Positions 18,130 to 32,985 of a stretch of 64,000 bases of DNA are shown here, in pieces. Position 1 is the first letter of the stretch. The number at the start of each line of letters is the position of its first letter. The stretch spans positions 109,866,001-109,930,000 of the forward strand of contig CM059431.1 in the NCBI GenBank assembly GCA_030390025.1, given 5' to 3'. Source of the DNA: Squalus acanthias. Lineage: Eukaryota. The notes under the pieces were generated by a model. The model was not told the origin of the DNA. It ran no database searches and saw only the letters and a list, made by a program, of their open reading frames with translations. The position numbers were made by a program, and so were the translations under genes.

Positions 18130-18974
18130 CATAGTCCACAAGATCACCAAATAAATACAAATGCGGGAGGTATTTGGCCCATCTTAGGGCATCCACCCAG
18201 CATTAAAAAACTTACAGTCCTCCCTATTGTGTATTATGACTTGAATGAATCTAGGTTTTCACCTCTACTAACCAAAGAAGGCCATTCCAAATGTTGACTA
18301 CTCTTCATGTGAAAGAAATTCTTCCTGGGATCTACCCTAAGTTGACCTTTCATCAGTTTTAACCTATGCCCCCTCCTCCCACTCGCCCCTTTGAAGTACT
18401 GTTCTGGATCTGTTGCATTTAATATCGTAGATATATACTTCTATAAGATCTCCATCTCCCTCTCTTTTCAATACTAAAGAACCCAGTTTCTCCTGCCTTT
18501 GCTCATTACTCAATCCTTTGGCACCAGGGATGAGCGCCATGCCTCTTCTCTGCATCACCCCCGTGGCTCCAATATTTCCCTTATGTCTTGGTGACCAAAA
18601 CCAATTTAGTCCTCAAGGTGCCGCCTGAGCAGGGAATTGTACAGTTTTAGCATGACATCTTCTGACTTATACTCAATTAATTTAGTCATATAATTTTAGC
18701 ATTCTGTCCACTTTGTTTATAGCTGTTCCACAGTAATTTGATACATTAAGTGCTAAATCTATGATCATCCCTCACCCCCTTTCTGCTTTACTTTCAGGCA
18801 TTTCGACACCATACACAAAATACTTATGAACGCAGTTTTCTCTCAACTACCTTGCACTTGTTTGCATTGAACTTCATCTGGCACGGATTTGTCCATTTAC
18901 AAATTTTATTTAAAACCTTCTATAGGCTCCTGGCTGCTTCCTCCAACTCAATTGCCCCATTTTAGCATCATCTG
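18130..18974 (-). mobile_element. Old CR1 LINE, 3' half (target of the provirus)
   Basis: Degenerate CR1 C-terminal motifs (LIPGAKGLS.E.R.EKLG...GDLIEVY). Continues after the provirus at 31755. Confidence 0.7.
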
Positions 18975-20688
18975 TGTAAAGTTTCGCAATTATCGCGATT
19001 CGAAATAACAAGACAGAAGCAGATTCGTTTGATCAGTTTATTTAAACAAAATGCTGTCATGATATAAAGGACACAGAAGCCTGTAAAATGGCCGCCACGC
19101 ATCGTGGCAGAAGCTTCCAGAATTACAGTGGGCAGACAAGATGGCGTTCGAATAAACATTTCAATATAAGACGGGATCATACTCGATAAGCACTGATAAA
19201 GACAGGATGCAACCTGTTTGCATTTATGACAATAGCAAAAGATATGAGTGCTGGAATCGTTTTCCATGCACAAGTAAGGACCATTGTACTGGGCAATCGA
19301 AGGCCCATCCAGACACATCAATACACAAATACCCCCACGGCTCTACAATGAGAGAGCCATTCTCGGGTGATTAAACAAGTATTCGGGGGCCCCCAAAACC
19401 AGTCAAGGAGATGATTCATACGATCCTGGCTGGGCCAACAATGGGGAAAACATTAACGGGTAGTTGGCCAGTTTCAGGTGCTACCGAAACCCGTTAAAGA
19501 CAAGAATCGCCCCATGCTGGGAGTTTTAAGCGCCAATATTTCACAAAGGACAAACATTAAGATTTGGGCGGGAGATAAGGGAACACAGCACTATAACTAT
19601 AGTGAACAAATGTCCATCGGTCTCTTATCTCTGCGGACTCTTGACTCGGGCTGAACTTTTATTCTCCTATTCTGATCCTCGGGTATCACTCTGCTGGACG
19701 AGCAGCCTTCTGTGTTTTCTCTGGACTCTGTTGACTCTGGACTTTAGCCGCACTGGACGGTTATTCGAATGTTGGGTGGGGCTCAATTGGAACGAGTCGC
19801 CTCGACGAAGGCCAGTGACCGGGTGCACCATCTCGAGAGTCGGTAAACGGTGTTTGGACCCAAAGGCCCAACAAGACAAGACGAAATGACAAGAGAAGAA
19901 GAAGAATCCACGTGCCGCCGCGGTCAGTAAACCCCGACCGCGCCCGAAAATATACGACCCATTTCTTGAACTCTACAGGTTACTGCACGAACCGGTCAAA
20001 GACTCTACTTTGAATTCTACCGACAACTGGTGTCGGTACAGGAAGACTTTTCTTTGAGTTCTACAGCCGGGCCCGAGTGCTGTCGAGTTCTTCATGACAA
20101 CGGGGAGCCCAGCCTGCTTGCCGCAGCAGCGAAGATAAACAAGTGGGGTACAGAGACCCCTCCAAACACGTGACAGTCAGGCGCTGCAGCGAAACGAGCC
20201 GAGTGCCTCACTTAAAAATTCTCCGAAGTATCACGAGTGGTGAGCATGTTTCCCGATCCTACAAATCTAGACGTAGTGTAGGTATTGATAAGGGAGGGTG
20301 GTTTATTAAGGATAAAGTATAATGTGTTCCCCTTTTTACGATGTGCCGTGCGTTCTTCATTACCATAGACCAAGCTTTATGAATGTATGTATACTTGTAC
20401 TCTCGTTAATTTGCGCCTATGACATGTACTTCATGATTTTGGACGCTATGCAATAAAGATTTCCGTTTCGTACTATTCAACCGGGTCTATTTGAGTTTTT
20501 CTCTGCATTACTGCTCTCGCACCTAAGTCCAGTGTTAGAACCGTAAGGGCGAGTGGGTCGAACCACTCACAGGTGCTTATTGCAACAAGGCTGGCCGGAG
20601 ACCAGAGCAAGCAATAGTATTAGGCAATGAAGGCCTAACCTCGCACCAGCACCGTCTGCGATACAAGCACGCGACAAAACCCCTTACA
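18975..20688 (+). repeat. 5' LTR (1714 bp)
   Basis: Direct repeat of 30040-31754 (about 20 substitutions and 1 indel by manual comparison). TG...CA termini. AATAAA at 20452. Confidence 0.97.
20240..20245 (+). promoter_or_regulatory. Putative major splice donor inside the LTR (TG|GTGAGC)
   Basis: Consensus-like 5' splice site, conserved as TGGTGAGCAT in both solo LTRs (10435, 42254). Confidence 0.6.
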
Positions 20689-20692
20689 GAAA

Positions 20693-22515
20693 ATGGCGAC
20701 CACGGCAGGACACTGGCAGCGAGAGAGTAATGTTTTAGACCCTGGTGTGAATAGGCAAAATGTGATGGATGAGAGGGTAGCCGACTATGTGTTTGGGAAG
20801 GTTAACTTAACCAAAAGGTGGATAAGTGACCTGCTGATGGATAAGCGTCCGTTAGACGCAGCCATCAAATGGACAGACAGTAAAGAGCATAAGAAGTCGG
20901 TAGAGAAAGCGGTCTGGCTGATGTGCTACAAGAAGCAAGTCCAACTTTCGGACCAGGTCATTGTGGCACAGGCAGCTCAGATCAAGGATTTGGAAGTTGA
21001 GATGGAGGAAAAGATCACGGGGGACAGAAACTCATTGCATCCTTGAATGCGTTACATCAGGAACGCCAGATAGTAGCCAACCACCATGAGGCTAAAATTG
21101 ATTACCTAGAGTGTCAGGTCATGGAAGCGAAATTAAACGAGGGTAGGATTAGAGAACGGTGTGCCCGCCTAGCTAACCAGATAAAAGCCCAAGAAGAAAG
21201 CTTGAAGGGAGTTAGGGCGGCATATAAGATGGCCCTCGAGGATAGGCATGAGGGAGCCGACCACAGTGTTTGCCAGAAGGAGATAGGGAACCTAAGAGAG
21301 GCCCTGAATAAGGCAAACGGCTTGGTGTGCCTCATCAGCCCGTCAGCAAACCAGCCACAGGTGGGTAGGGAATTCCCCAAATCCCTACCAGACAAAGCAG
21401 AGGAGGTATTTGCCACTGCGCCCTCCGCGCCACCCAGCTATTCGGCAACCTGGATAAGGGAGGAAGTGGTGGAAATAGAAAGGGAGGTTCCCGAGGTAGG
21501 ACAGTCCCCGGAGGTAGAGTCGAGCCCGGGACCGATGTGTCCGCTCCGAGGTCACAAGAGAGGCCCGAACGCAGCCAATGGGGATGACGGGGATGTCCTG
21601 AACCAGCTTGTATTGCCTCACAGCTCACACCAGCTGAGAGCAATGATTAGCCATGTACGGAAGCTGTCCGAATCGGATGACCCTTCCGTACACTTTAGGG
21701 AGGTAGAACAGACCACAGCAATTAATGGCTGCGACGATGCGGAAAAGACCAAAATGTTGCTGTTCTCGTTAGATAGCTCGATCCTTCAGTGTCTCTCAGA
21801 CGAGAGCAAGAAGGGAAATAAAACCTATGGGGAGTTACGGGACGAGGTCCTAGAAGTGTTGGGGGCGGATGACGAAGGTCCGTTCGTCAGATTGGGTCAG
21901 ACCGTACAGATGGAGGGAGAACCCCCGAAGGTTTTCGCCGACAGGCTGTGGCCAGTATACCAGCGTAGCTGCCCAGGTGCGCCAGGGCGCGATTATCTGG
22001 ACGGTGCCGGTTTTACTCATTGGCTCAGGTGTTTAGTAGCCAACAGTTTGCCAGCCGTCAGGGAGCAGGCCAAAGCGTGGTTTGATCCCACTAACCCCGC
22101 CACAACAGAGGAGTCAGTCCTGAATTGACTCACCATAGGGTATCGGAACACTAGGAGCACGGGAGTGCATCCCCTTAAGGGAAAGGTGCATGAGGCACGG
22201 CCCGCAGCCCCGGCTCAAAAGGAGTGGCATCAGGAGGGAAACCGCGCCCCACAGGCCAGTGGTGCTTGTTACGGGTGCGGGAAGACAGGTCACTGGCGTA
22301 AGAACTGTAGGAACCCCTGGAAGGACCCCAGGGATAAAAATCCTGCAGCCCTAACCCAAGCGCCTGTCTCTGAGAGAGGAGCTGGTGTGCCTATCCATCC
22401 CGATGCGATAGAATCAATGTTGGGAGCTATGCGGTCCCTTATGATTTCGCAAGGAAGGGTGGCAGTCGCTACCGGCCTCACAGATGCCACAACCCCGTCC
22501 ACCAGTACCCAATGA
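20693..22515 (+). pseudogene. gag: gag (N-terminal coiled coil, PSAP/PPSY late domains, capsid-like region, CCHC zinc knuckle)
   Basis: ORFs 20693-21046, 21043-22128 and 22165-22515 join via one frameshift (~21010) and one in-frame TGA (22126). Zinc knuckle CYGCGKTGHWRKNC. Confidence 0.85.
20694..20711 (+). promoter_or_regulatory. Primer binding site, tRNA-Arg type
   Basis: TGGCGACCACGGCAGGAC, 5 nt after the LTR. Complementary at 17/18 to the 3' end of vertebrate tRNA-Arg(TCG) (...GTCCTGCCGCGGTCG-CCA, recalled from memory). Confidence 0.8.
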
Positions 22516-22793
22516 CTAGAGCCCGCGCAGCCCGTTTACCTGTGTCCGCTCAGCTATGATGCGTGGAAAAGACCCCTGGTTGAGATGGAGGTAGAGAAGC
22601 AGAAGGGTAGTTATTTGTTGGACACAGGAGCTTCATGCACCGTGATCCATACGGATAGCCCCTTTGACTCACCACTGTCTACCAAGGTCCCATTCACATT
22701 AGCGGGGTTCACAGAAAAGAGCAGGCTGGCGCGTTCTCCATTCCGCTCTCCATTCATTTAGGAGCACTCCACACCACATGGAAGTGCATACTG
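22516..22793 (+). pseudogene. pro: Aspartic protease N-terminal half, in frame with gag after the TGA
   Basis: Reads LEPAQPVYLCPLSYDAWKRPLVEMEVEKQKGSYLLDTGASCTVI (DTG 22621-22629). A 1-nt frameshift near 22713 joins it to ...KCILMKWQ..GILGSDLL. Confidence 0.85.
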
Positions 22794-25700
22794 ATGAAAT
22801 GGCAAGAGGGGGGTGGCAGAGGTATCCTCGGATCGGATCTCCTATCGGAACACGGGATCCTCGTGGACCTTAGGAATCACTGTCTCTGGGGAGCCAAGGG
22901 TGGGAAAGGCAAGGTAGTTGTAATCCCGGGGAAGGAAGGTAAAGGGGCCCTGTGTACCATGAAGCCATCCGGAGGTTACGACCTCGGGCTTATGGTCGCG
23001 GATGTCCCAACGGACATGCAAACGTACGTGTCAGATAATATGCACGCGTTTGCAACCCACAAGCACGATTGTGGGAGGGTTACCGGGTTTGAGGTCAGCG
23101 TAGACGGGGACCCCATGACCCGGCCCCAAAAACAGTATAACTTCCCCAAAGAAGCAGAACCCGATATGGAGACAGCAATGTCCTCCTTGGTGCAGCAGGG
23201 CGTGTTGAGGCCGATAGCCACACACGTGAACTCCCCATTATGGCCGGTGAGGAAGCCGGATAATTCGTGGAGGGCCACGGTGGACTACAGAGTCCTTAAC
23301 AGTAACATCCCCGCCTGCGCGCCCACAGTAGCAGCAATTGCTGACCTGATAGGGAGTATCCCAGCGTCCGCGACCACGTTCACGGTGCTGGATATCTCGA
23401 ACGGTTTTTGGTCCATCCCGCTGCGGCGAGAGGACCAGTACAAGTTTGCCTTTACTTTCAAAGGACAACAGTACACATGGAACTGTTTGCCACAGGGTTT
23501 CCACAACAGCCCCAGTATTTTCCATCAGTGTATGGCAGGAAGTTTAAAGGAGTTTAGTCAGCCCAATCAGATAGTGCAGTACGTGGATGATTTGCTCCTG
23601 TTCACGGACTCAAGGGAGGAGCATGGACCACTGCTAGCCGAGTTATTGGAGCTGCTAGCGAGAAAGGGTTTTAAAGTGAACCCTAAGAAAGCACGTATCG
23701 GTCAGCAGGAAGTAAAATTCCTGGGTCTGACCATTCGCGCTGGGGAAAGAGCCATAGATAAGGCTAGGAGGGAGTCGGTGCAGGAGTTACCGATTCCCAA
23801 CACCATAACGGGTGTGAGGTCCTTTCTGGGACTGACCGGTTACTGTAGAGACTTCATCGAGGACTATGCGGCCACAGCAGCTCCGCTGCTCCGACTCCTC
23901 CATAAGGGAGTGGAGTGGTCTTGGGACGAGGGTTGTCAGGCAGCATTCGAGAAGTTAAAAAGGGATTTGCAGACCGCGCCAGCTTTAGGGGCCATAGATG
24001 GGGGGAAGGAGTTTTTCCTGGAGGTAGCTGCCAGCGGAGACAGCTTGAGCGCTGTGCTGCTCCAAGAGCGTCACGGCAAGCTGAGGCCGGTTGTCTATTC
24101 GTCCAGGGTGTTAACGGATGTGGAAAGGAGTTTCTCCAATTGCGAAAGGCATCTTTTAGCCACGCATTGGGCTGTGAAAAGATCAGCGATCTTCACAGGG
24201 CTCTCTCCCATCACTCTCCTCACCCATCACACACCAACTAAGATGCTTCTAGATGGGAGGATTAAGGATGGGACCGTAAGCAGCGCTCGTATTGCGCGCT
24301 GGACCCTTCTCCTTTCCCAGATGGATCTTAGAGTTAAAGGTCTTTGCGAGCCCAGGCTTGCGGCCAACTTGGTATACCCCGGAACAGCCCACCGGTGTTC
24401 GGTGGAAGGGGTGTGGGAGGTCAACATAGGTTTACGGGCCGGGATACATCCCACAGGTCGCGAGATTTATGTTGATGGTTCCAGCACAGTGTCCGCTGGC
24501 GAACGACTCACAGGGTGTGGAGTTTATGACACTGCGGCAGACCTTGCCCTGGCAATTAAACTCCCCAGCACCATGAGCGCGCAGCAGGCTGAGCTGTCTG
24601 CGGTGGCGTACGTCGTTACCCACCCAGAAATTTTCCCAACCCCATACACGATTTGTTCAGACAGTATGTTTACGTGCAATTCGTGTACGGAATACCTGGC
24701 CATTTGGTCCCGCCGTGGTTACACCTCCGCGGATGGGCGACCTTTAACGGTGAAGCCCTTGCTGGAAAAGATCCTAGCAGCAGTAGGGGAGGAAGGGGAG
24801 ATTTTCATCCATAAGGTGAAAGCTCACTCCTCCACAGAGCCCCGTGGGGAGGGCAACCAGCAGGCGGATGCGCTAGCCAGGGAGGGTGCCCGCAACGGCA
24901 TTTTCTGGGACCCCTATGGACCCGGACCCGTGGCAGCGATCCAAGGCAGGGAAGGGAATCCCGGGAACACCAGGGTAGCACTGCCCCTAGACCTTAAGAC
25001 CGTCCAGAACCAGGATCCCGCCCTAAAAGCAGTTCTCAGAACGATTACTGAGGGCAAGCAGGTAGAGGGCCCGTACAGTACGGCAACCCTCTCCGTTAAA
25101 GAAGGCATGCTGTTCCGCGAAGAACAGTGGGTTGTGCCGCAGCAGCACAGGAGGGAATTCCTCCAGTTAGCTCATGAGGGGCCGGGGGCAGGACACCCCG
25201 GGCCCGAGGTTACCTGGCAACGGGTAGAGCAGGCGGGATGGTGGCCGGGACTCAGGGAGCAGGTCCGCGAGTTCTGTGCAAACTGTCTTGTGTGCGCTGC
25301 AAACAACCCAGACCCCCAGAAAAGGAAAGTGCACATGGGGCACATCAGGAGGCTGGAGGGACCATGGCAGTCGATACAGATCGATTACATAGGGCCCCTG
25401 CCCACCACCCAGGGAGGCTACAAATACTGCCTCGTCTTGGTGGATGTGTTTTCCAAATGGGTAGAAGCCTTCCCCTGTGGAACAGCTACGGCGCTGGGTA
25501 CAGCCAAGATCTTGGTCCGGGAAGTGTTCTCGCGGTGGGGACTCCCCCGTTTCGTGGAGTCAGACCAAGGGAGTAATTTCACCGGCCAGGTGATGCAGAA
25601 CACCCTCATGCTTTTGGGCATTGAAGGGAAGTGGCACGTAGCGCACAATCCCCAGTCATCCGGGATTGTTGAACGCATGAACCGGACCCTCAAGGAGAAG

Positions 25701-27005
25701 CTGAGGAAAGAGACTATGAACTCGCCCCAAAAATGGGCGGAGGTTCTGCCTCTAGTCCTCATGGGGATCCGGGCCAGCCAGTCGAAGAGTACGGGGTATT
25801 CCCCGTACGAGGTGATGACTGGTAGGATCATGCGAACCCCCACCCATGTACTAGCCCCGGTGCTCACTGAGGATCAGCTCCAAGAGGTGAAAAGGGACAA
25901 GTTTGTCCAGACCCTCTTGGAGCGCCTGAAGCAGGTTTACGAGCAGGCAGCTGGGAACATGGGAAGACAGCATCAGGGCAATCGCCTGTTGCTGGAACCC
26001 CGCAAGAAGCAGGAGTGGGAAGTCGGAGATCAGGTCATGGTTAGGAACTATGCCAGAGTAGGGAGTTTGGAACCACTGTATATGGGGCCCTACAGTATTG
26101 TAGATAAAGCGAGTCCCATGGTGTACGCCGTAAAGGTACCTCGGCGCACGAAATGGTTCCACATTAACCAGTGCAAGTTGTATAAGCCGGGTGCACAGGG
26201 GCCAATCACGGGGGCCAGACCTGCGAGTGGGGACTCGCAGCCCCGGGTAGGACCGCAGGGCACACAGACCGGTAAAGCAGCCTGCTTGAGGGGAGAGGAC
26301 ATTCTAGAAAAGTGTAGGATCTTTTCTTGGTGTTGGGATTCAGATGAGGAAGAACTCGAGGAGCTCGACCAAGGTAGTGACCCGATCGGAGAGGTGCTGG
26401 GGTCGGAGGACGAAAGTTTCGTCCTCGACTCAAGCTCAGGGGAGATAGGGGCTGCGAGTGGAGATCCACACAGGGTGGAATCAGAAACTGCAGATCCCGA
26501 GCCCAGGGGGGCGGAGCTAGGGGAGACGGAGCCAGCGGCTGTGGTAGGACCACAGGTCGTGACGGTGGAAGTCTCGGTACCCGGTCCGTCGGCCCTGGAA
26601 GTCTTGCCCTTGGGGGAGGTAGGGTTTGCGAGTGGAGGACCACATACTGGGCCAAGTAGGGTGGAGCCAGAAACTGCAAATCCCGAGTTCAGGGGGGCGG
26701 GGCCAGGGGAGACGGAGCCAGCGGCTGTGGTGGGACCACAGGCCGCGACGGTGGAAGTCTTGGTTCCTGGTCCGTCGGCCCTGGAAATCTTGCCCAAAGT
26801 AGCCCTCCGTAGGTCAAGTCGGACACCCCAGCCCAGGAAGTCGTGGTCAAGTCCCCCGTACGCCCCCAGGCGTAAGTTCAAGGTCAAGGCAGCCCAGGGA
26901 GATCCCAGTCCCAGCGCAGAGGCGACAGGCTGCGGCAGATCAAAGGAAGGGGTCAGTGCCCTCCCACCACTGGGAAAAGCTTGTGGCAGCCTTCGCAGAA
27001 TTTAG
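22794..27005 (+). CDS. pol: pol: protease C-terminus, RT, degenerate RNase H (tether), second RNase H, integrase, long C-terminal extension
   Basis: 1403-aa open frame: LPQGFHNSP, YVDD (23580), FLEVAAS (no catalytic Asp), IYVDGSS..SAQQAEL..ICSDS..KVKAH..GNQQADALA, HHCC, QIDYIG..SDQG..GIVERMNR, GPY. Confidence 0.95.
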   Translation: MKWQEGGGRGILGSDLLSEHGILVDLRNHCLWGAKGGKGKVVVIPGKEGKGALCTMKPSGGYDLGLMVADVPTDMQTYVSDNMHAFATHKHDCGRVTGFEVSVDGDPMTRPQKQYNFPKEAEPDMETAMSSLVQQGVLRPIATHVNSPLWPVRKPDNSWRATVDYRVLNSNIPACAPTVAAIADLIGSIPASATTFTVLDISNGFWSIPLRREDQYKFAFTFKGQQYTWNCLPQGFHNSPSIFHQCMAGSLKEFSQPNQIVQYVDDLLLFTDSREEHGPLLAELLELLARKGFKVNPKKARIGQQEVKFLGLTIRAGERAIDKARRESVQELPIPNTITGVRSFLGLTGYCRDFIEDYAATAAPLLRLLHKGVEWSWDEGCQAAFEKLKRDLQTAPALGAIDGGKEFFLEVAASGDSLSAVLLQERHGKLRPVVYSSRVLTDVERSFSNCERHLLATHWAVKRSAIFTGLSPITLLTHHTPTKMLLDGRIKDGTVSSARIARWTLLLSQMDLRVKGLCEPRLAANLVYPGTAHRCSVEGVWEVNIGLRAGIHPTGREIYVDGSSTVSAGERLTGCGVYDTAADLALAIKLPSTMSAQQAELSAVAYVVTHPEIFPTPYTICSDSMFTCNSCTEYLAIWSRRGYTSADGRPLTVKPLLEKILAAVGEEGEIFIHKVKAHSSTEPRGEGNQQADALAREGARNGIFWDPYGPGPVAAIQGREGNPGNTRVALPLDLKTVQNQDPALKAVLRTITEGKQVEGPYSTATLSVKEGMLFREEQWVVPQQHRREFLQLAHEGPGAGHPGPEVTWQRVEQAGWWPGLREQVREFCANCLVCAANNPDPQKRKVHMGHIRRLEGPWQSIQIDYIGPLPTTQGGYKYCLVLVDVFSKWVEAFPCGTATALGTAKILVREVFSRWGLPRFVESDQGSNFTGQVMQNTLMLLGIEGKWHVAHNPQSSGIVERMNRTLKEKLRKETMNSPQKWAEVLPLVLMGIRASQSKSTGYSPYEVMTGRIMRTPTHVLAPVLTEDQLQEVKRDKFVQTLLERLKQVYEQAAGNMGRQHQGNRLLLEPRKKQEWEVGDQVMVRNYARVGSLEPLYMGPYSIVDKASPMVYAVKVPRRTKWFHINQCKLYKPGAQGPITGARPASGDSQPRVGPQGTQTGKAACLRGEDILEKCRIFSWCWDSDEEELEELDQGSDPIGEVLGSEDESFVLDSSSGEIGAASGDPHRVESETADPEPRGAELGETEPAAVVGPQVVTVEVSVPGPSALEVLPLGEVGFASGGPHTGPSRVEPETANPEFRGAGPGETEPAAVVGPQAATVEVLVPGPSALEILPKVALRRSSRTPQPRKSWSSPPYAPRRKFKVKAAQGDPSPSAEATGCGRSKEGVSALPPLGKACGSLRRI

Positions 27006-27282
27006 GTAGACCGCCCTGGGAACGGGCGGCGCTGTACAGTTTAAGTTTAGGATAAGTTTATAAGTTTAAGTTTAAGTTTTGTAAGTTTGGTAAGTTTGTA
27101 GTTTAATTTTAAAAGTAAACGGTAAAATGATGGGAGTTAGTGATAGGAATAGTTAAAGTCTATCCAGCATACATGTCGTTATACGTGAGACGAGGTCAAG
27201 GGACCCGCTCACCCTTCACAAAAGCCAGAGACTCTTGGGAGGCTGGCTACATCATTTTATCTGATCACAGGAACCAGGAAAG

Positions 27283-29628
27283 ATGGAAAGGATTCTGATA
27301 GTGCTCGCAACGATCGGATATGGATTGGCCTATCGGGGCCTCACCAAGGATGTCGTTGTGTTTGGTTGCTCCGGGACACGGGCCCCATCGCGACGGATGG
27401 GACCGGGGAGCGAAAGGCTGAGGAGACCGCCACTTATTTCCACAAGGGAAGGTGGCCGGGATGGCTGGGAACGAATTCAACGGAATACTCCAGCGCATCC
27501 GGATTTGCCTACAAAGAGACTTCTTTACTGTGCCCCAGAGTGAGGATCATTGCACCCAGAATCAGCGTCACCGTCGGCAAAAGGATTTGTTTGACATGCA
27601 ATGGGAAGGTCCCATTGAGCCGATGGTGGTGGTTACGGAAGTTAAGCAAGACTATGAGAAATTCCTCGGTTGAGTGGGAGCGATTGGGTAACAATACCCA
27701 TCGGACAATTACGGGGACTAACGGACAATTGAAAGTCTGTTGGGACAAATGGTGGGAACCGGATGAGGGAATATGTTTGTATGTGGGGATCGAAGTACGT
27801 TTGCCCCAAGGGTATATCCATATTTTTCGTACACCAGTGGCAGGATAACGGGAAAGGGATGAGGTGGGATGTCAGCACAAAGGGGTGCGGAGCTCCATTC
27901 TCCCCGATCCCGGTAAACGCCACTGAACTCATCACGCGCCCACGCAAGGCTCCGCCCATGATTCCGGTGGTTTTGGCTCAGGAGGAAGGGTGCCCTAAAA
28001 CCACTAAGGGGCCCGGGAATGGTTTGGTACTGGTCCCAACAGACCAGATACTATTTCAAGGGGTACATTACGCGGTGGCTTCGGTGATTCTAAATCTCAC
28101 CGAGGTGCGGTTACCAGAGTGGTGTCCCAAAGAAACGGAACAATTGTACCAGGTCCTGTTAACAAACATGTTCAGACAATTCTACGAGTTTGATTTTGCA
28201 GAGATTGACAAAACAAGCTTGTACACCACATGAAGATTTGGGTCAGGTGGGGAGACAAAGAAGGGGTATTGTGAACGATATGTTCACCGCCTTTAATACA
28301 GGAACATCTGTGGTCAACGCTCTAGACAACGTGGAGCTGCAGACCCAGGTCAATGGTTTAAAAACACAATTAAAAAGCATCCTCACAAGCAAAAACAAGG
28401 TAGTAGGGTCTGAGTTACATGAGGACCAGGCCATGACACTACACTTAAAAAGGAGATTATAGCAGAGCTGGAGAAGCATGCGAGAACGGTAAATGCCCTG
28501 ATTAGGGAAGATCGGAATGCATCCGATCAAGCTGCGCAGAACGAGGTGTGCGTACTATACGGGGCGTGGTTACTGGGCGAGGGCCGCAGTAATTTGGAGG
28601 ATTTAAAACAAGGTTTGGTCCCGTCCTGAATAAGTAACAAACACCTGCAGGCGCTCCACCCTTTTCAGAACACATTAAGCCCGTGCCAGCTCAGGCTAGC
28701 CTCAGAGGCATACCCAGTCCCCGTGGACTGCGGATGGTCAAACCATACCATCATGGGTATAGTACTACGTATGCCGGTTTTGGGCGACACAGCAAAGCCC
28801 ACCCCGGTGTATCGGGTAGAGAACATGGGTGTCATTCAGGGGGGAGCCCACGTTCGCTACGCAGCGGTCCCACCTTACGTCATCCGCTGGGAGCAAACGA
28901 TGACAGGTACCGACCTATCGGGTTGTCGTGGCCGGGGAGCACACATAATACTGTGTCCCCAGCACTTGAATGCCTTTTTAACACCGCAATGCGGGTTCAG
29001 AACGGCTGGCGCGAAGCCCATGAATTGCACCATGGAGGCAATGACACAAGATCATGTGCCTCCGCAGGTGGCATACATAGGGGGTGGAACATATTGCGTT
29101 ACCACTGCAGCGCAACACTACCAGCATGGAAACCACAGCCGCTGTCCAGTGAGTGACAGCAGTTTCTGTTTTAAACCCAGGGCTGAAGTTCAAGTGGCAC
29201 AACAGCGAATTGTCCCGATCCCTGAACCATCCACTGTTCATCTTACAGTAAAAGAGAATTTCACCGACTTGCAGCGATTCGTCGCGCATTTCGGATACAT
29301 CATTTCCCCTCTCCCTGAACACCTCACCAAGCTTTTGAAAGCCGTCACGGTATCACAAAAACATTTTTACACCCTGGAACAAAAGACTGTCGAGATAGGG
29401 ACAGAAATTTTGGACATAGTAATCCCACCGTGGTGGGATCTGTTCACTAATATTGAAGTTCCTTCATGGATCAGGATAGCCTCCCACATTTTGGTTGTGT
29501 GCCAAGTTATAATAGTAGTGTACCTATTGGTCGTACACTGCAAGAGAGGCAAACGCCTCACAAAGCAGGAGAACACAGGGGAGTGGAGAGAACGTTACGT
29601 GCGCGTGAATGAAGAAAGTGCCGCGTAA
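27283..29628 (+). pseudogene. env: env: class I fusion glycoprotein with signal peptide, Ig-like domain, furin site, fusion peptide, heptad repeats, TM
   Basis: Signal-like MERILIVLATIGYGLA; RQRR|GIVNDMFTAFNTGTSVVNALD (28253-28264); Cys-rich ectodomain; TM WIRIASHILVVCQVIIVVYLLVVHC. Broken by about four frameshifts (~27362, 27769, 28228, 28450) and TGA 28627. Splice acceptor ttttatctgatcacag ends at 27270. Confidence 0.85.
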
Positions 29629-30026
29629 ACGGCCAGGATGACGCCGCTCCATTTTTTTTTTTACCATGTGTGTTTTCGTAATTGATTGTTGTTTATGAAT
29701 ATGTGTAACTAAGTTTGGAACTTTTGTATTTTTAAAATAGTTGTTTTGATTATTTTATTATTTTTCCTTGTATAATAAAAACATGCATATACAGGTGGTG
29801 CGCGAGGCATCGGCCTCTTGCACCTGGAAGGCGTATTCGCAATGCAAGTTTAAAGGCAATACTGCCTACGATTTGTCCAAGTTTAAACAATGTAATTTCT
29901 CTGGGAAATGAGGACGGCATGGAGGCCATAGATAGTTTAAGTTAAGGGAGTGTTTGGATGTGGAGAATCGGGATAATTTTGCTCACCACCACTTTTAATT
30001 GATACGATAAGCGGAGTTATTCGCAT

Positions 30027-30039: not shown

Positions 30040-31754
30040 TGTAAAGTTTTGCAATTATCGCGATTCGAAATAACAAGATAGAAGCAGATTCGTTTGATCA
30101 GTTTATTTAAACGAAAATGCTGTCATGATATAAAGGACACAGAAGCCTGTAAAATGGCCGCCGCGCATCGTGGCAGAAGCTTCCAGAATTACAGTGGGCA
30201 GACAAGATGGCGTTCGAATAAACATTTCAATATAAGACGGAATCATACTCGATAAGCACTGATAAAGACAGGATGCAACCTGTTTGCATTTATGACAATA
30301 GCAAAAGATATGAGTGCTGGAATCGTTTTCCATGCACAAGTAAGGACCATTGTACTGGGCAATCGAAGGCCCATCCAGACACATCAATACACAAATACCC
30401 CCACGGCTCTACAATGAGAGAGCCATTCTCGGGTGATTAAACAAGTATTCGGGGGCCCCCAAAGCCAGTCAGGGAGACGATTCATACGATCCTGGCTGGG
30501 CCAACAATGGGGAAAACATTAACGGGTAGTTGGCCAGTTTCAGGTGCTACCGAAACCTGTTAAAGACAAGAATCGCCCCGTGCTGGGAGTTTTAAGCGCC
30601 AATATTTCACAAAGGACAAACATTAAGATTTGGGCGGGAGATAAGGGAACACAGCACTATAACTATAGTGAACAAATGTCCATCGGTCTCTTATCTCTGC
30701 GGACTCTTGACTCGGGCTGAACTTTTATTCTCCTATTCTGATCCTCGGGTATCGCTCTGCTGGACGAGCAGCCTTCTGTGTTTTCTCTGGACTCTGTTGA
30801 CTCTGGACTTTAGCCGCACTGGACGGTTATTCGAATGTTGGGTGGGGCTCAATTGGAACGAGTCGCCTCGACGAAGGCCAGTGACCGGGTGCACCATCCC
30901 GAGAGTTGGTAAACGGTGTTTGGACCCAAAGGCCCAACAAGACAAGACGAAATGACAAGAGAAGAAGAAGAATCCACATGCCACCGCGGTCAGTAAACCC
31001 CGACCGCGCCCGAAAATATACGACCCATTTCTTGAACTCTACAGGTTACTGCACGAACCGGTCAAAGACTCTTCTTTGAATTCTACCGACAACTGGTGTC
31101 GGTACAGGAAGACTTTTCTTTGAGTTCTACAGCCGGGCCCGAGCACTGTCGAGTTCTTCATGACAACGGGGAGCCCAGCCTGCTTGCCGCAGCAGCGAAG
31201 ATAAACAAGTGGGGTACAGAGACCCCTCCAAACACGTGACAGTCAGGCGCTGCAGCGAAACGAGCCGAGTGCCTCACTTAAAAATTCTCCGAAGTATCAC
31301 GAGTGGTGAGCATGTTTCCTGATCCTACAAATCTAGACGTAGTGTAGGTATTGATAAGGGAGGGTGGTTTATTAAGGATAAAGTATAATGTGTTCCCCTT
31401 TTTACGATGTGCCGTGCGTTCTTCATTACCATAGACCAAGCTTTATGAATGTATGTATACTTGTACTCTCGTTAATTTGCGCCTATGACATGTACTTCAT
31501 GATTTTGGACGCTATGCTATAAAGATTTCCGTTTCGTACTATTCAACCGGGTCTATTTGAGTTTTTCTCTGCATTACTGCTCTCGCACCTAAGTCCAGTG
31601 TTAGAACCGTAAGGGCGAGTGGGTCGAACCACTCACAGGTGCTTATTGCAACAAGGCTGGCCGGAGACCAGAGCAAGCAATAGTATTAGGCAACGAAGGC
31701 CTAACCTCGCACCAGCACCGTCTGCGATACAAGCACGCGACAAAACCCCTTACA
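30040..31754 (+). repeat. 3' LTR (1715 bp)
   Basis: Direct repeat of 18975-20688, followed by TSD TCTG. Confidence 0.97.
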
Positions 31755-32985
31755 TCTGTGATTTTAACTAGTTTACATTAGGTTTCTGAATCCAAGACAT
31801 TGGGGCAACTTTTGTCTGGTGCTGGGAACATGCCACCTGCCCAATCGCACCAGGGAAGGACCCGAACCATCTTCTTGGTTGGGCCTCATTAGCATGCAGC
31901 TGGCAAAGCTGCGAGCACCGAAAGAATGCTCTGAGGCAGTGGCCGGTCCAGGGGTGGGTGGGTTGGAAAACATCTAGCTCCTACGCTGAGCTGGCAGAGC
32001 GTCCTGTCTGAGGGCGGGGGGGGGGTGGGGGGTTGGTGCGAGGGGGAGTTGGTGTTGACTCCTGCTCCTCCTGGCCCAACAAAGTAAAATTTTAAAAATT
32101 TGCCCCATTTTTGGAGCAACCTATAGCGGTTCCTTTAAGGACTGTTCATTAGACCTCTCCATGCCAGGGACCGATGGGCGATGCCATCTGCTGGGGTCCT
32201 ACAACAATTTAAATATTGTAATAAGACGTCCACCTATTGCTGATCGTCACTTTCAAGGCCTGCTCGAAAATAGAGGCGGGCAAATTCAGGCAGCCAATGG
32301 GCACAACTTGTTTCTTCTAACCTTTATTTGCCTACTGCTCCATTTTGCAGTGTAAATGGGGCAGTAGCCATTCAGAAATTGCTCCCACAAATGTAGATTA
32401 AGTATCGCTAGAGGTCCAGCACTGATCCCTGGGGTATTCCATTCAGTACTTCCCCACCCCTGATCTCCCGGACATGTACTGATTGTTTCATTTACTTCAG
32501 CCAATTCTTTATCCACATTCAGGATTCTCCTTGAACCTCACTGCTTTCATTTGCAGTAGCAGACTTTAGTAGTGAGGAACTTTATTAAAGGTTTTTGGGA
32601 AATCTAAGAACGCCATTGATTTTGGGTTTCCACTCCACTATCTACTTGAGATGTCACTTGCTTATCTATTATTTACTGGACTATTTGCACAAAGATAGCC
32701 CTCAAATTTACTCTTGAAGATCGATTCAATTATTTCACCAGATTTTGATTCGAGGCTAATGGGTCAGTAGACACCTGGATTAGACTAGTATCTTTCTTGA
32801 ATTTGGGTACTACATAAACTTGTTTCCAATCCAGTAGGATCTCCCAAACATTTCAGTGACCTCTTCAAGGTGATTTTAAACATTTTGCAGGTTTCTTCCC
32901 CATTCTTTCTTTGTAAGCTTGGATAGATACCATCCATCCCTGCAAATTTGTTCACTTTGAATGCTCTAAGGCTGTCTAGAAGCCT
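31755..32985 (-). mobile_element. Old CR1 LINE continuation (RT region), with an unrelated GC-rich insert at ~31790-32385
   Basis: Minus strand VLNGIPQGSVLGPL (~32400-32450) and LDFPKTFNKVPH (~32570-32610). KLVKI(T)DDAK spans the provirus insertion point. Confidence 0.7.

Follow-up and report, generated by a model that had tools for sequence, protein, structure and literature searches.

The envelope protein (Env) of a large family of endogenous retroviruses in a cartilaginous-fish genome probably carries an N-terminal module with an immunoglobulin (Ig)-like core, mounted on a fusion scaffold of the paramyxovirus F type, and this module is most likely the attachment part of the protein. In the proposed arrangement, a lineage-specific module of about 220 residues would sit before the F-type scaffold, a proline-rich and glycosylated linker would connect its Ig-like domain to the start of the F2-like segment, and the module would serve as the attachment (receptor-binding) part that triggers or positions the F-type fusogen. 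Paramyxoviruses rely on a dedicated attachment protein; in a retrovirus, env must do this work alone, which makes the module the most likely candidate for it, and its position, its faster divergence and its swapping among lineages all point to a receptor-binding role.

The window (the whole stretch of 64,000 nucleotides analyzed here) contains a 12.8-kb endogenous retrovirus with the order LTR-gag-pro-pol-env-LTR, all on the forward strand. The 5' LTR (18975..20688; 1714 nt with TG...CA ends, delimited by blastn of both ends) and the 3' LTR (30040..31754, with a purine-rich tract before it) are 98.8% identical over 1715 aligned columns by blastn (20 mismatches and one gap), and are flanked by identical target-site duplications of 4 nt (18971..18974 on the left and 31755-31758 on the right). 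A primer-binding-site-like TGG... lies 5 nt downstream of the 5' LTR. The open reading frame list places gag, nucleocapsid (with a CCHC knuckle) and protease (DTG) in one frame at 21001..22761; two in-frame stops (22126-22128 and 22513-22515) break it in this copy, and its gag part gives a weak match to DUF7041. The pol region (22668..27005) was assigned by Pfam to reverse transcriptase, tether/RNase H and integrase (RVT_1 at 6e-36, RT_RNaseH_2, RNase_H, Integrase_H2C2 and rve), and ends in a long Pro/Glu-rich C-terminal extension; its closest solved chains are XMRV/MLV reverse transcriptase (1e-70), Ty3, foamy PR-RT and the PFV integrase. The env gene occupies 27283..29628, as judged from the open reading frame list and from comparison with other copies. 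The element is one decayed member of a young and very numerous family.

The comparison with those copies (29 in number, L002-L030, chosen as the best among at least 40 matches and 96-98% identical) settles how the env frame of the window is to be read. The earlier note on this DNA had described an Ig-like domain divided between two frames, and both of the texts it quoted are present: the stop-to-stop frame 27189-27848 contains ...ISVTVGKRICLTCNGKVPLSRWWWLRK...LKVCWDKWWEPDEG, and the frame 27733-28233 contains ...EYVCMWGSKYVCPKGISIFF.... That the two belong together is borne out by all 29 other copies, in which the Ig stretch forms a single frame of equal length. The repair that had been suggested, a single base added at ~27769 to give DEGEYVC, was mistaken: the window copy is 2 nt shorter than each of the 29 others at about 27770, and in those copies the joint reads D-E-G-I-Y-V-C, which is the natural form. 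The full Cys...Trp...DxGxYxC pattern lies within one open frame in 25 of the 29, the remaining four having a stop codon within it, and env as a whole is open over at least 783 codons in 15. One hundred shuffles of the window yielded no open frame with the same pattern.

The frameshift account was right that the two frames join but incomplete, for the env frame of the window changes not only at about 27770 but also at about 27372, 28226 and 28447, and meets a stop codon at 28627-28629. The break at about 27372 separates the start codon and signal peptide (27283-27339, in a third frame) from the Ig frame. What had been described as a domain hidden by a frameshift amounts to the decay of a single copy. 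Among the 30 copies, pairwise pN/pS has a value of 0.26 for the Ig region and of 0.20 for env as a whole, and therefore most of the differences arose while env was in use; by this measure, many open env genes of the family appear to be under purifying selection. Public gene sets also list fragments of these env genes under host genes, which is a caution for annotators.

Reconstructed from the open copies, the protein can be divided into consecutive parts, all encoded on the forward strand. A signal peptide (residues 1-19; 27283..27339) is indicated by a hydrophobic stretch after the first methionine and by a helix at residues 2-16 of the model. It is followed by a Cys/Trp-rich N-terminal stretch (residues 20-87; 27340..27542), which is conserved in the group-A lineages, is modeled with a pLDDT below 50 and contains the break at about 27372. 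The Ig-like domain (residues 88-185; 27543..27834) was delimited by its signature together with profile and fold searches. A Pro-rich linker with one N-glycan site (residues 186-237; 27835..27990) connects it to the remainder; no other part of the protein is less conserved within group A (46-56% identity, against 68-86% for the fusion core), it is modeled at pLDDT 21-36, and other lineages have PT-rich linkers at the equivalent place. The F2-like segment (residues 238-330; 27991..28264), defined by alignment A3 and by structural matches, opens with a CPxxTxGPxNGLV motif that is conserved in all lineages and ends at a furin-type RQRR (28253-28264); the break at about 28226 falls within it. The F1-like ectodomain (28265..29475), delimited by alignment, model and fold searches, comprises a fusion-peptide-like stretch, a heptad helix (383-444), a beta-rich portion (477-645) and a membrane-proximal helix (681-712), and in the window copy it contains the break at about 28447 and the stop codon at 28627-28629. 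A transmembrane segment (residues 734-754; 29476-29538), predicted from a hydropathy maximum at 734 and a model helix at 730-780, a short cytoplasmic tail and the stop codon complete the gene (29476..29628).

The case for the Ig-like domain begins with its signature. The canonical Ig triad consists of a strand-B cysteine, a strand-C tryptophan some 10-15 residues later, and a D/E-x-G-x-Y-x-Cys motif in strand F, the two cysteines being 55-75 residues apart. All of these elements are present: Cys106 (27597-27599), tryptophans at 115-117 (Trp117 at 27630-27632), and the DEGIYVC motif ending in Cys167 (27762-27780), with 61 residues between the two cysteines, close to the figure of about 60 given in the earlier note. 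The triad is invariant in seven of seven group-A sequences (57-62% identity), and the pattern is conserved in env lineages that are 51-62% identical over the region, across which the spacing of 61 residues and the pattern of hydrophobic positions persist as well; in several lineages the Asp of DxGxYxC is replaced by Glu. The domain also departs from the textbook form, being rich in tryptophan (three consecutive at strand C, and a WDKWW) and containing extra cysteines at 103, 153 and 175.

Searches with sequences and profiles consistently returned Ig domains, at scores short of significance. Ig_3 was the only recurrent Pfam family, found in 6 of the 15 members of alignment A3 (seven of which contain the region; best E 0.015), and it matched the N-termini of all four group-A sequences (E 0.0034-0.088) and of none of four from group B. 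No curated Ig profile was matched above its gathering score, Ig_3 reaching 12.5-18.3 bits against a required 30 (E 0.0034-0.22), and therefore the domain is named Ig-like and not a member of the Pfam family. In the PDB, all three phmmer matches were Ig domains (domain 2 of JAM-A and two antibody VL chains, E 0.4-1.3), as were the top four of seven matches in a profile search (E 0.19-0.57); by their own standards, none of the three sequence tests (Pfam, PDB phmmer and PDB profile) was significant for Ig, with PDB E values of at least 0.19. A profile-profile comparison used hhalign to align the Ig region with 12 short Ig_3 exons of the host genome, and gave a P of 2.9e-4 with a probability of only 40.7%; the alignment covers 62 columns at 31% profile-level identity, with strands A' to F in register, and controls with gag, a group-B N-terminus and the rest of Env gave P values of 0.36, 0.42 and 0.049, respectively.

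Predicted structures point in the same direction. The AlphaFold model of the N-terminal region is all-beta, with eight strands in the number and order of an Ig domain; the models themselves are poor (mean pLDDT 43.5 and 43.8, rising to 50-70 in the Ig region), and alignments of 13 and 24 rows from about eight lineages did not suffice to raise their confidence. For the N-terminal model, each of the 50 Foldseek rows listed is an entry with an antibody-type V domain (target TM 0.5-0.6), the E values starting at 1.7e-3 and none reaching E<=0.001. When aligned by VIA with 48,161 chains, the top 50 were all Ig-fold proteins (rmsd 2.2-4.4 Å over 80-101 residues) at Z values of 8.0-9.0, which is little above the 7-8 that the tool gives as typical of models without a clear match. 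The two Greek-key sheets of the model superpose on solved Ig domains, to the extent that a model at pLDDT 50-70 allows. Every named neighbor in the ESM Atlas was of the ig, V-set or I-set families (scores 0.88-0.91), where, according to the notes that accompany the tools, uniform neighbor lists, like middling Z values, also arise for unrelated or shuffled proteins.

These qualifications are the substance of the best-surviving alternative, namely that there is no Ig fold at all, and that a Cys/Trp-rich, beta-rich viral domain bears a chance Ig-like motif that is merely echoed by AlphaFold, Foldseek and the language model. Every sequence score is indeed below threshold, the confidence of the region is limited, the structural and language-model scores are of a kind also reported for unrelated proteins, and the lines of evidence depend upon the motif and are not independent of one another. 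A chance motif accords less well with 62 columns that run in register with host Ig exons at a P of 2.9e-4 (against 0.05-0.4 for the controls), with an all-beta model of the right strand count and order, with the retention of motif, spacing and hydrophobic pattern across lineages, or with the fact that no sequence, profile, language-model or fold search of the stretch ever returned another fold. We consider this alternative improbable, at perhaps the level of one chance among several. The Ig fold that the earlier note proposed thus fares reasonably well: a beta-sandwich, whose failure to appear had been named as evidence against it, is predicted by the AlphaFold model and the fold searches for exactly this stretch, and all searches lead to Ig, although each line is weak and Pfam remains below its cut-off. 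Residues ~88-185 are best modeled as an Ig-like beta-sandwich of the V/I-set kind, and we infer a true Ig fold from tests that are individually weak and all agree.

The remainder of the protein, from residue ~238, is predicted to be a class-I fusion protein of the paramyxovirus-F/foamy-Env type. With the Env model (mean pLDDT 43.8) as query, Foldseek found 187 matches in the PDB at E<=1e-3, and all 50 of those listed are paramyxovirus or pneumovirus F proteins (E 2.8e-9 to 4e-5, over 454-551 columns). VIA gave the foamy Env at Z 8.2 and F proteins at Z 7-8, with matches that begin at model residues 243-247, corresponding to F residues 24-36. The BFVD, with 42 matches at E<=1e-3, returned mononegaviral, baculoviral, paramyxoviral, walleye epsilonretroviral and foamy glycoproteins, and the ESM Atlas placed the protein with clusters of Baculo_F (score 0.92) and Fusion_gly (0.91), with which it shares 193-197 features. 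The F fold extends, in this low-confidence model, over most of the ectodomain (domains I-III and the heptad regions), and the linear order is that of a class-I fusogen: a furin-type site (cleavage being predicted), a fusion peptide and heptad repeat A, and then heptad repeat B adjoining the anchor. In alignment A3, residues C238, P239, G244, P245 and G248 are nearly invariant, and R330 of the RxK/RR site is invariant in the 14 aligned lineages, followed by a conserved G..ND..T..NTGTSVVN.LD. At the level of sequence profiles, PF00523 was matched by none of 15 env sequences at E<=1 (and not at E<=10 for env P0001), Baculo_F by one of 15 (E 0.18), and a PDB profile search with alignment A3 returned no F protein; therefore the core is called F-type or F-like, and is not assigned to PF00523. 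Structural similarity to F sets in only at residue ~244, which puts the Ig-like module ahead of the entire F scaffold, as the earlier note had supposed.

The behavior of this module among env lineages suggests its function. Within group A, the N-terminal module is 46-62% identical and the core 68-86%, and other env lineages in the same genome have unrelated N-terminal modules before the common CPxxTxGP start. Evidence for an Ig-like module ancestral to all lineages was sought and not obtained: the group-B1 N-terminus gave a P of 0.42 against host Ig, and for lineage L065 the match was short and confined to an A'-B-C-like part (P 0.028 with Ig and 0.12 with group A). In two group-B lineages, L067 and L068, the open frames provide only ~60-90 residues ahead of the core, and their 5' ends are possibly truncated.

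The last observation bears upon a second alternative, about as improbable as the first in our estimate, in which the Ig-like domain is real and is not a receptor binder: it would instead cap or shield the prefusion trimer, aid folding or assembly, or act as an immune decoy or ligand mimic, with attachment residing in residues 20-87 or in the F-type core. If the short N-termini of L067 and L068 are genuine, a large module may not be essential; residues 20-87 are likewise conserved and have no assigned fold; and, on our reading of one report (PMC13524379 / 10.1101/2023.10.26.564294), the F-type envelopes of insect retroelements and baculoviruses need no additional attachment protein in order to function. 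Against this, the divergence of the module outpaces that of the core and lineages exchange it, as is usual for receptor-binding parts, it is the sole recognizable globular domain outside the fusion scaffold, and the frames of L067 and L068 are perhaps truncated at their 5' ends. An attachment role for the module thus continues to be the reading that we favor.

The earlier note had also raised the possibility that the Ig fold was captured from the host, and had called for its nearest cellular homologue. None was identified: a phmmer search of the N-terminal 335 residues against 1.84 billion representative proteins found no cellular Ig relative, its 12 matches at E<=1e-3 being 11 env fragments and one bacterial repeat protein. 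Word-indexed searches of 5.8 billion proteins likewise returned only env fragments (from skate, sawshark and others) and the same bacterial protein (P0012), which matches in nine short stretches and was judged spurious. The domain is present in env fragments from skate (P0002 and P0005), in lineages that are about 50% diverged, and probably also in sawshark, where the env fragment P0003 starts within the final strand; therefore any capture must be old. Viral Ig domains are generally regarded as host-derived, V/I-set domains with such a signature are typical of animal cell-surface proteins, and Ig_3 exons of the host itself gave the best profile match, but a recent capture of a host Ig exon, with a close donor gene still present in cartilaginous fishes, is very unlikely given that none of the 12 phmmer matches is a cellular Ig protein, that profile-level identity to the host exons is only 31%, and that the domain is shared by ~50%-diverged lineages, by skate and probably by sawshark.

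A more speculative possibility, to which we give rather less than even chances, is that an old fusion joined a host cell-surface Ig domain to the N-terminus of an F-type fusogen, where it replaced the paramyxovirus-type attachment protein; the domain would bind an Ig-family or glycan receptor through its Trp-rich face, in the manner of a cell-adhesion molecule, and sister lineages would have swapped the cassette. If that were true, this superfamily of endogenous retroviruses would amount to a natural collection of exchangeable receptor-binding modules built on a single F scaffold, with many copies intact. Since the family is young and numerous, with many open env genes and sister modules on the same core, the acquisition and exchange of modules by F-type proteins becomes directly testable, both through comparison and through ordinary work on the proteins.

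Several known systems share parts of this arrangement. Cellular V/I-set domains (domain 2 of JAM-A, the Ig domains of titin and obscurin, and antibody and IgNAR V domains) resemble the module in the triad, the DxGxYxC motif, the order of strands and the fold matches; they differ in that the viral domain scores below all curated thresholds, has the Trp triplet, the WDKWW and three extra cysteines, and yielded no orthologue or donor. Among retroviruses, the lokiretroviruses of lower vertebrates (Wang and Han 2021) are described as having an Env that resembles the F of Mononegavirales, with a signal peptide, an RXKR site, a fusion peptide, a coiled coil and an anchor (PMC7947760). Their Env matched PF00523 at an e-value of 2.2e-7 (PMC7947760), unlike the Env described here, and the supplementary table of that paper records no positives in six chondrichthyan genomes, so that the present host belongs to a group from which no F-type (loki) retrovirus emerged in the published screen. 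The main text of the same paper does not contain the words ‘immunoglobulin’, ‘receptor’ or ‘N-terminal’ (PMC7947760). No literature linking lokiretroviruses with immunoglobulin was found, and titles and abstract openings likewise yielded no account of an F-type retroviral Env bearing an Ig-like domain, in agreement with the statement of the earlier note that it knew of no description of this arrangement.

The walleye epsilonretroviruses WEHV-1 and WDSV are also fish retroviruses, with an Env that is distinct from the gamma type according to a review (PMC9967133). Their predicted Env structures ranked 5 (E 6.1e-10) and 21 (E 9.8e-7) in the BFVD, a likeness of predicted structures between proteins of 1159-1317 residues and one of 783. 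Their setting is similar as well, in that the pol described here is closest to a gammaretroviral reverse transcriptase among solved chains and the target-site duplication is 4 nt.

Ig-like cores, in the form of sandwiches that serve receptor binding, are found in the gammaretroviral receptor-binding domain and in herpesvirus gD. The coronavirus spike, in turn, places a receptor-binding module at the N-terminus of a class-I fusion scaffold, as outlined in PMC11468914. These three differ from the present Env in their scaffolds or in the folds of their modules, and none of them is an F-type retroviral Env with the canonical Ig signature.

The F proteins of paramyxoviruses and pneumoviruses share the layout of this Env, in which an F2-like segment runs up to a furin-type site, a fusion peptide and a long heptad helix come next, and beta-rich domains, a second helix and an anchor follow; the lengths also fit, the F2-like segment here having 93 residues and the F1-like ectodomain ~400. 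F-type fusion proteins have long been regarded as requiring an attachment partner, and F itself has no N-terminal addition and uses a separate attachment protein; the Env described here, by contrast, is borne by a retrovirus, has no sequence match to PF00523 and carries an extra N-terminal module of ~220 residues.

The Env of foamy viruses (8rm0 and other structures) is likewise retroviral and combines an F-like core with its own receptor-binding module (a putative one in the present case). VIA ranks it first (Z 8.2 over model residues 244-563), and the feline foamy Env appears in the BFVD at E 2.1e-3; the Pfam foamy Env family gave no match at E<=10. As set out in PMC11468914, the foamy receptor-binding domain is a non-Ig domain located after a leader peptide, between the F2-like part and the furin site; the F protein is viewed there as a minimal scaffold that accepts receptor-binding modules N-terminally or internally, and the grafting of such modules on F-like scaffolds has accordingly been published for foamy Env and coronavirus spike. 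The element described here differs in having a gag with a CCHC knuckle, a signal peptide of the cleavable type in place of the foamy leader, and a stretch from F2 to the furin site of only 93 residues with no inserted domain, the module being located before the F2-like part. The foamy Env demonstrated in 2024 that a retrovirus can build a receptor binder into an F scaffold; the present element would be a second and different solution to the same problem, in which a module with an Ig signature is placed at the N-terminus and not, as in foamy viruses, a domain of novel fold within the scaffold.

The Ig-like domain examined here belongs to the env gene of a provirus of 12.8 kb, which is bounded by direct repeats (LTRs) of 1714-1715 nt at 18975-20688 and 30040-31754. 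These repeats begin with TG and end with CA, are both flanked by the same 4 nt, and are 98.8% identical (20 mismatches and one gap over 1715 columns). Between them lie gag, whose frame encodes a CCHC knuckle, a protease (DTG), pol (RVT_1, 6e-36, with RNase H and integrase domains) and, as a fourth coding region, env (27283-29628); among solved chains, pol is nearest to XMRV/MLV reverse transcriptase (1e-70), followed by Ty3, foamy PR-RT and PFV integrase. Gag, with its CCHC nucleocapsid part, and protease share a single frame, interrupted by in-frame stops (22126-22128 and 22513-22515) that may represent either family-wide read-through signals or decay of the window copy, and pol begins in a different frame (22668). 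The Pro/Glu/Gly-rich C-terminal extension of pol (about 26000-27005) harbors a 138-nt direct repeat (26472-26609 and 26658-26795; 90% identity, 186 nt apart) that codes for ...GPSALE.LP... units. Opposite the 3' end of pol, an antisense frame of 303 codons is open (26090-27001, minus strand), and most of the 30 copies have an open frame of 250-383 codons there; either a real antisense gene or a side effect of the G+C- and Pro-rich composition could account for it.

A DNA search of the dogfish's own genome with 27250-29650 (4701 first-look candidates) identified at least 40 env copies at 96-98% identity, of which the best 29 were examined. The frames that the earlier note had joined, which extend over 27189-27848 and 27733-28233, were found as quoted, and they do belong together: in all 29 other copies the stretch encoding Env residues 80-185 is of equal length and reads as one frame through the joint. 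The damage supposed there is therefore real, but the window copy, alone among those compared, has lost 2 nt rather than one, and the 29 other copies read DEGIYVC at the joint, with Ile in place of the Glu of the predicted ‘DEGEYVC’. The same gene also shifts frame at about 27372, 28226 and 28447 and carries a stop (28627-28629); the first shift detaches the Ig frame from its signal peptide and start codon (27283-27339), and on its sequence the window env copy is clearly dead. Fifteen of the 29 other copies hold env open for at least 783 codons, and one of these naturally open copies, L006, provided the reading reference (protein P0001, 783 aa) with no need for frame repair. Pairwise pN/pS among the 30 copies, a rough measure as copy pairs share ancestry, is 0.26 for the Ig region and 0.20 for the whole of env, which suggests that the copies diverged in large part while selection still favored a working protein. 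The frameshift arose by accident in the window copy alone and has no biological interest; the interesting part is the protein behind it.

In that protein the Ig-like domain occupies residues 88-185 (window 27543-27834 by residue map, nearly exactly the extent originally proposed), with Cys106, a tryptophan cluster at 115-117 and the DEGIYVC motif ending in Cys167; the spacing between the two cysteines, predicted at about 60 residues, is 61. A scan of open frames for C-x8-13-W-x35-60-DxGxYxC recovered the pattern in 25 of the 29 other copies, in no open frame of 100 shuffles and, because of the break, in no open frame of the window. The Cys-Trp-Cys triad is invariant in seven sequences of group A (the window family and related lineages with the Ig-like module) with 57-62% identity to P0001 across the Ig region; several lineages have Glu in place of the Asp of DxGxYxC. 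Trp clusters and three extra cysteines are oddities of the domain.

Sequence and feature searches each remained below threshold, yet all pointed toward Ig. Pfam Ig_3 matched six of 15 env sequences in an alignment drawn from at least five lineages of the same genome and from public proteins (best E 0.015; seven of the 15 hold the region) and, when applied to N-termini, four of four from group A (E 0.0034-0.088) and none of four from group B, the lineages with other N-terminal modules. All three PDB phmmer matches were Ig domains (JAM-A domain 2 and two VL; E 0.4-1.3), as were the top four of seven in a PDB profile search (E 0.19-0.57), and named neighbours in the ESM Atlas belonged exclusively to Ig families (scores 0.88-0.91). 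A profile of 12 Ig_3 exons taken from the host was compared with the group-A profile using hhalign, and the two aligned in register from strand A' to F over 62 columns (P 2.9e-4, probability 40.7%); in control comparisons the host Ig profile gave P 0.36 with gag, 0.42 with an N-terminal module from a different env lineage and 0.049 with the remainder of Env.

The AlphaFold model of the N-terminal part, built from a 13-row alignment, is poor (mean pLDDT 43.5; 50-70 in the Ig region) and places eight strands in the right order. Foldseek returned no match to it at E<=0.001; the 50 rows listed were all entries with antibody-type variable domains, including shark NAR (E from 1.7e-3, target TM 0.5-0.6). 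With VIA-align, the top 50 of 48,161 chains were all of Ig fold (Z 8.0-9.0, rmsd 2.2-4.4 Å, 80-101 residues aligned). The Ig fold first read from the motif has that motif, a predicted sandwich and the direction of every search in its favor, set against sub-threshold sequence scores and a poor model; a V/I-set-type sandwich appears likely, in a domain that cannot be shown to belong to a curated Ig family.

Downstream, the conserved core begins at residue 238 of P0001 with a CPxxTxGPxNGLV motif, continues through an RxK/RR cleavage-type site, in which R330 is invariant, and a fusion-peptide-like stretch that is likewise conserved, and ends in a membrane anchor (734-754). Pfam and PDB profile searches gave no sequence match between this core and PF00523 or F proteins (the fusion glycoproteins of paramyxo- and pneumoviruses) in the PDB. 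The full-length AlphaFold model, again poor (mean pLDDT 43.8, pTM 0.34), contains a long helix (383-444), beta-rich domains (477-645) and a further helix (681-712). All 50 PDB rows listed by Foldseek were paramyxo- or pneumovirus F (best hPIV3 F, E 2.8e-9; 187 matches at E<=1e-3, with alignments spanning 454-551 columns), and a second look with VIA placed foamy-virus Env first (Z 8.2), ahead of RSV, hPIV3, HMPV, Langya and NDV F (Z 7-8). Matches in BFVD comprised F-type glycoproteins of mononegaviruses and baculoviruses, paramyxovirus F0, feline foamy Env and Env of two walleye epsilonretroviruses (E 6.1e-10 and 9.8e-7); in the ESM Atlas, Baculo_F and Fusion_gly clusters came first for residues 238-735 (scores 0.92 and 0.91). 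By predicted fold the core is F-type, in agreement with the F-like fusogen that had been expected behind the Ig-like domain. The VIA alignments all start at model residues 243-247, opposite F residues 24-36, and on the predicted fold everything before residue 238 is an addition to the F scaffold. Both structural assignments, Ig-like and F-type, rest on low-confidence models combined with agreeing sub-threshold sequence scores.

Env-related loci number in the thousands in this genome (5830 and 7013 first-look candidates). Group A consists of the window family and L041-L062, whose Ig-like module is 51-59% identical over residues 20-235. Identity to P0001 within group A is 46-62% for the pre-Ig part, Ig-like domain and linker; for the core parts it is 59-73% in L060 and 68-86% in the other four lineages. 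Other loci (L031-L040 and L063-L070) and protein P0014 carry unrelated N-terminal parts, about 60 to 260 residues long, followed by a Pro/Thr-rich linker and the same conserved core, which in the lineages of these loci is 25-37% identical to P0001. One of them, L065, contains a short stretch resembling Ig strands A'-B-C (P 0.028). Receptor-binding parts are typically distal modules that diverge fast and are exchanged on a conserved fusion machine. Because the N-terminal module shows such fast divergence and exchange, and there is no second envelope gene, attachment is provisionally assigned to it; the Ig-like module would serve this role on a conserved F-type fusion core. For this explanation as a whole, we consider the balance to be modestly favorable.

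The earlier note had suggested capture from the host. Old capture from a host Ig gene is the natural guess, although a search for the nearest cellular homologue (phmmer, N-terminal 335 residues against 1.84 billion representative proteins) found no cellular Ig protein at E<=1e-3. The 12 matches at that threshold were 11 env fragments and one bacterial repeat protein, the latter judged spurious. Recent capture appears unlikely, as the Ig-like domain is present in skate proteins P0002 and P0005 and a sawshark protein (P0003) begins in its last strand; no relatives of the env protein are named apart from those of skate and sawshark, which like the host are cartilaginous fishes. Three public gene models (P0003, P0004 and P0006) fuse env fragments to host genes (‘Niban 1-like’, ‘cadherin-related family member 5-like’ and a zinc-finger array) and look like annotation chimeras from ERV insertions. 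Contigs of public runs under at least six organism labels carry env sequence 90-100% like window 27250-29650, which implies either a family common to several related species or labels that denote close relatives.

F-like Env proteins have been described for lokiretroviruses (PMC7947760) and foamy viruses (PMC11468914), and F is presented in the latter source as a minimal scaffold that bears receptor-binding modules at its N-terminus (coronavirus spike) or inside (foamy Env). The lokiretrovirus main text makes no mention of immunoglobulin, receptor or N-terminal, and none of the six chondrichthyan genomes screened in its supplementary table is positive (PMC7947760). Env of exogenous fish epsilonretroviruses is described in a review as distinct from the gamma type (PMC9967133). 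The predicted Env proteins of walleye epidermal hyperplasia virus 1 and walleye dermal sarcoma virus are among the best BFVD matches to our F-type core, which suggests that Env in this virus group may be F-type too. Within the literature covered by our search, no description was found of an F-type retroviral Env that bears an Ig-like domain. The F scaffold and the principle of a ‘plug-in’ receptor binder are already known; new, as far as the sources seen extend, are the N-terminal module with an Ig signature, the host group (cartilaginous fishes), and the presence of alternative modules on one core.
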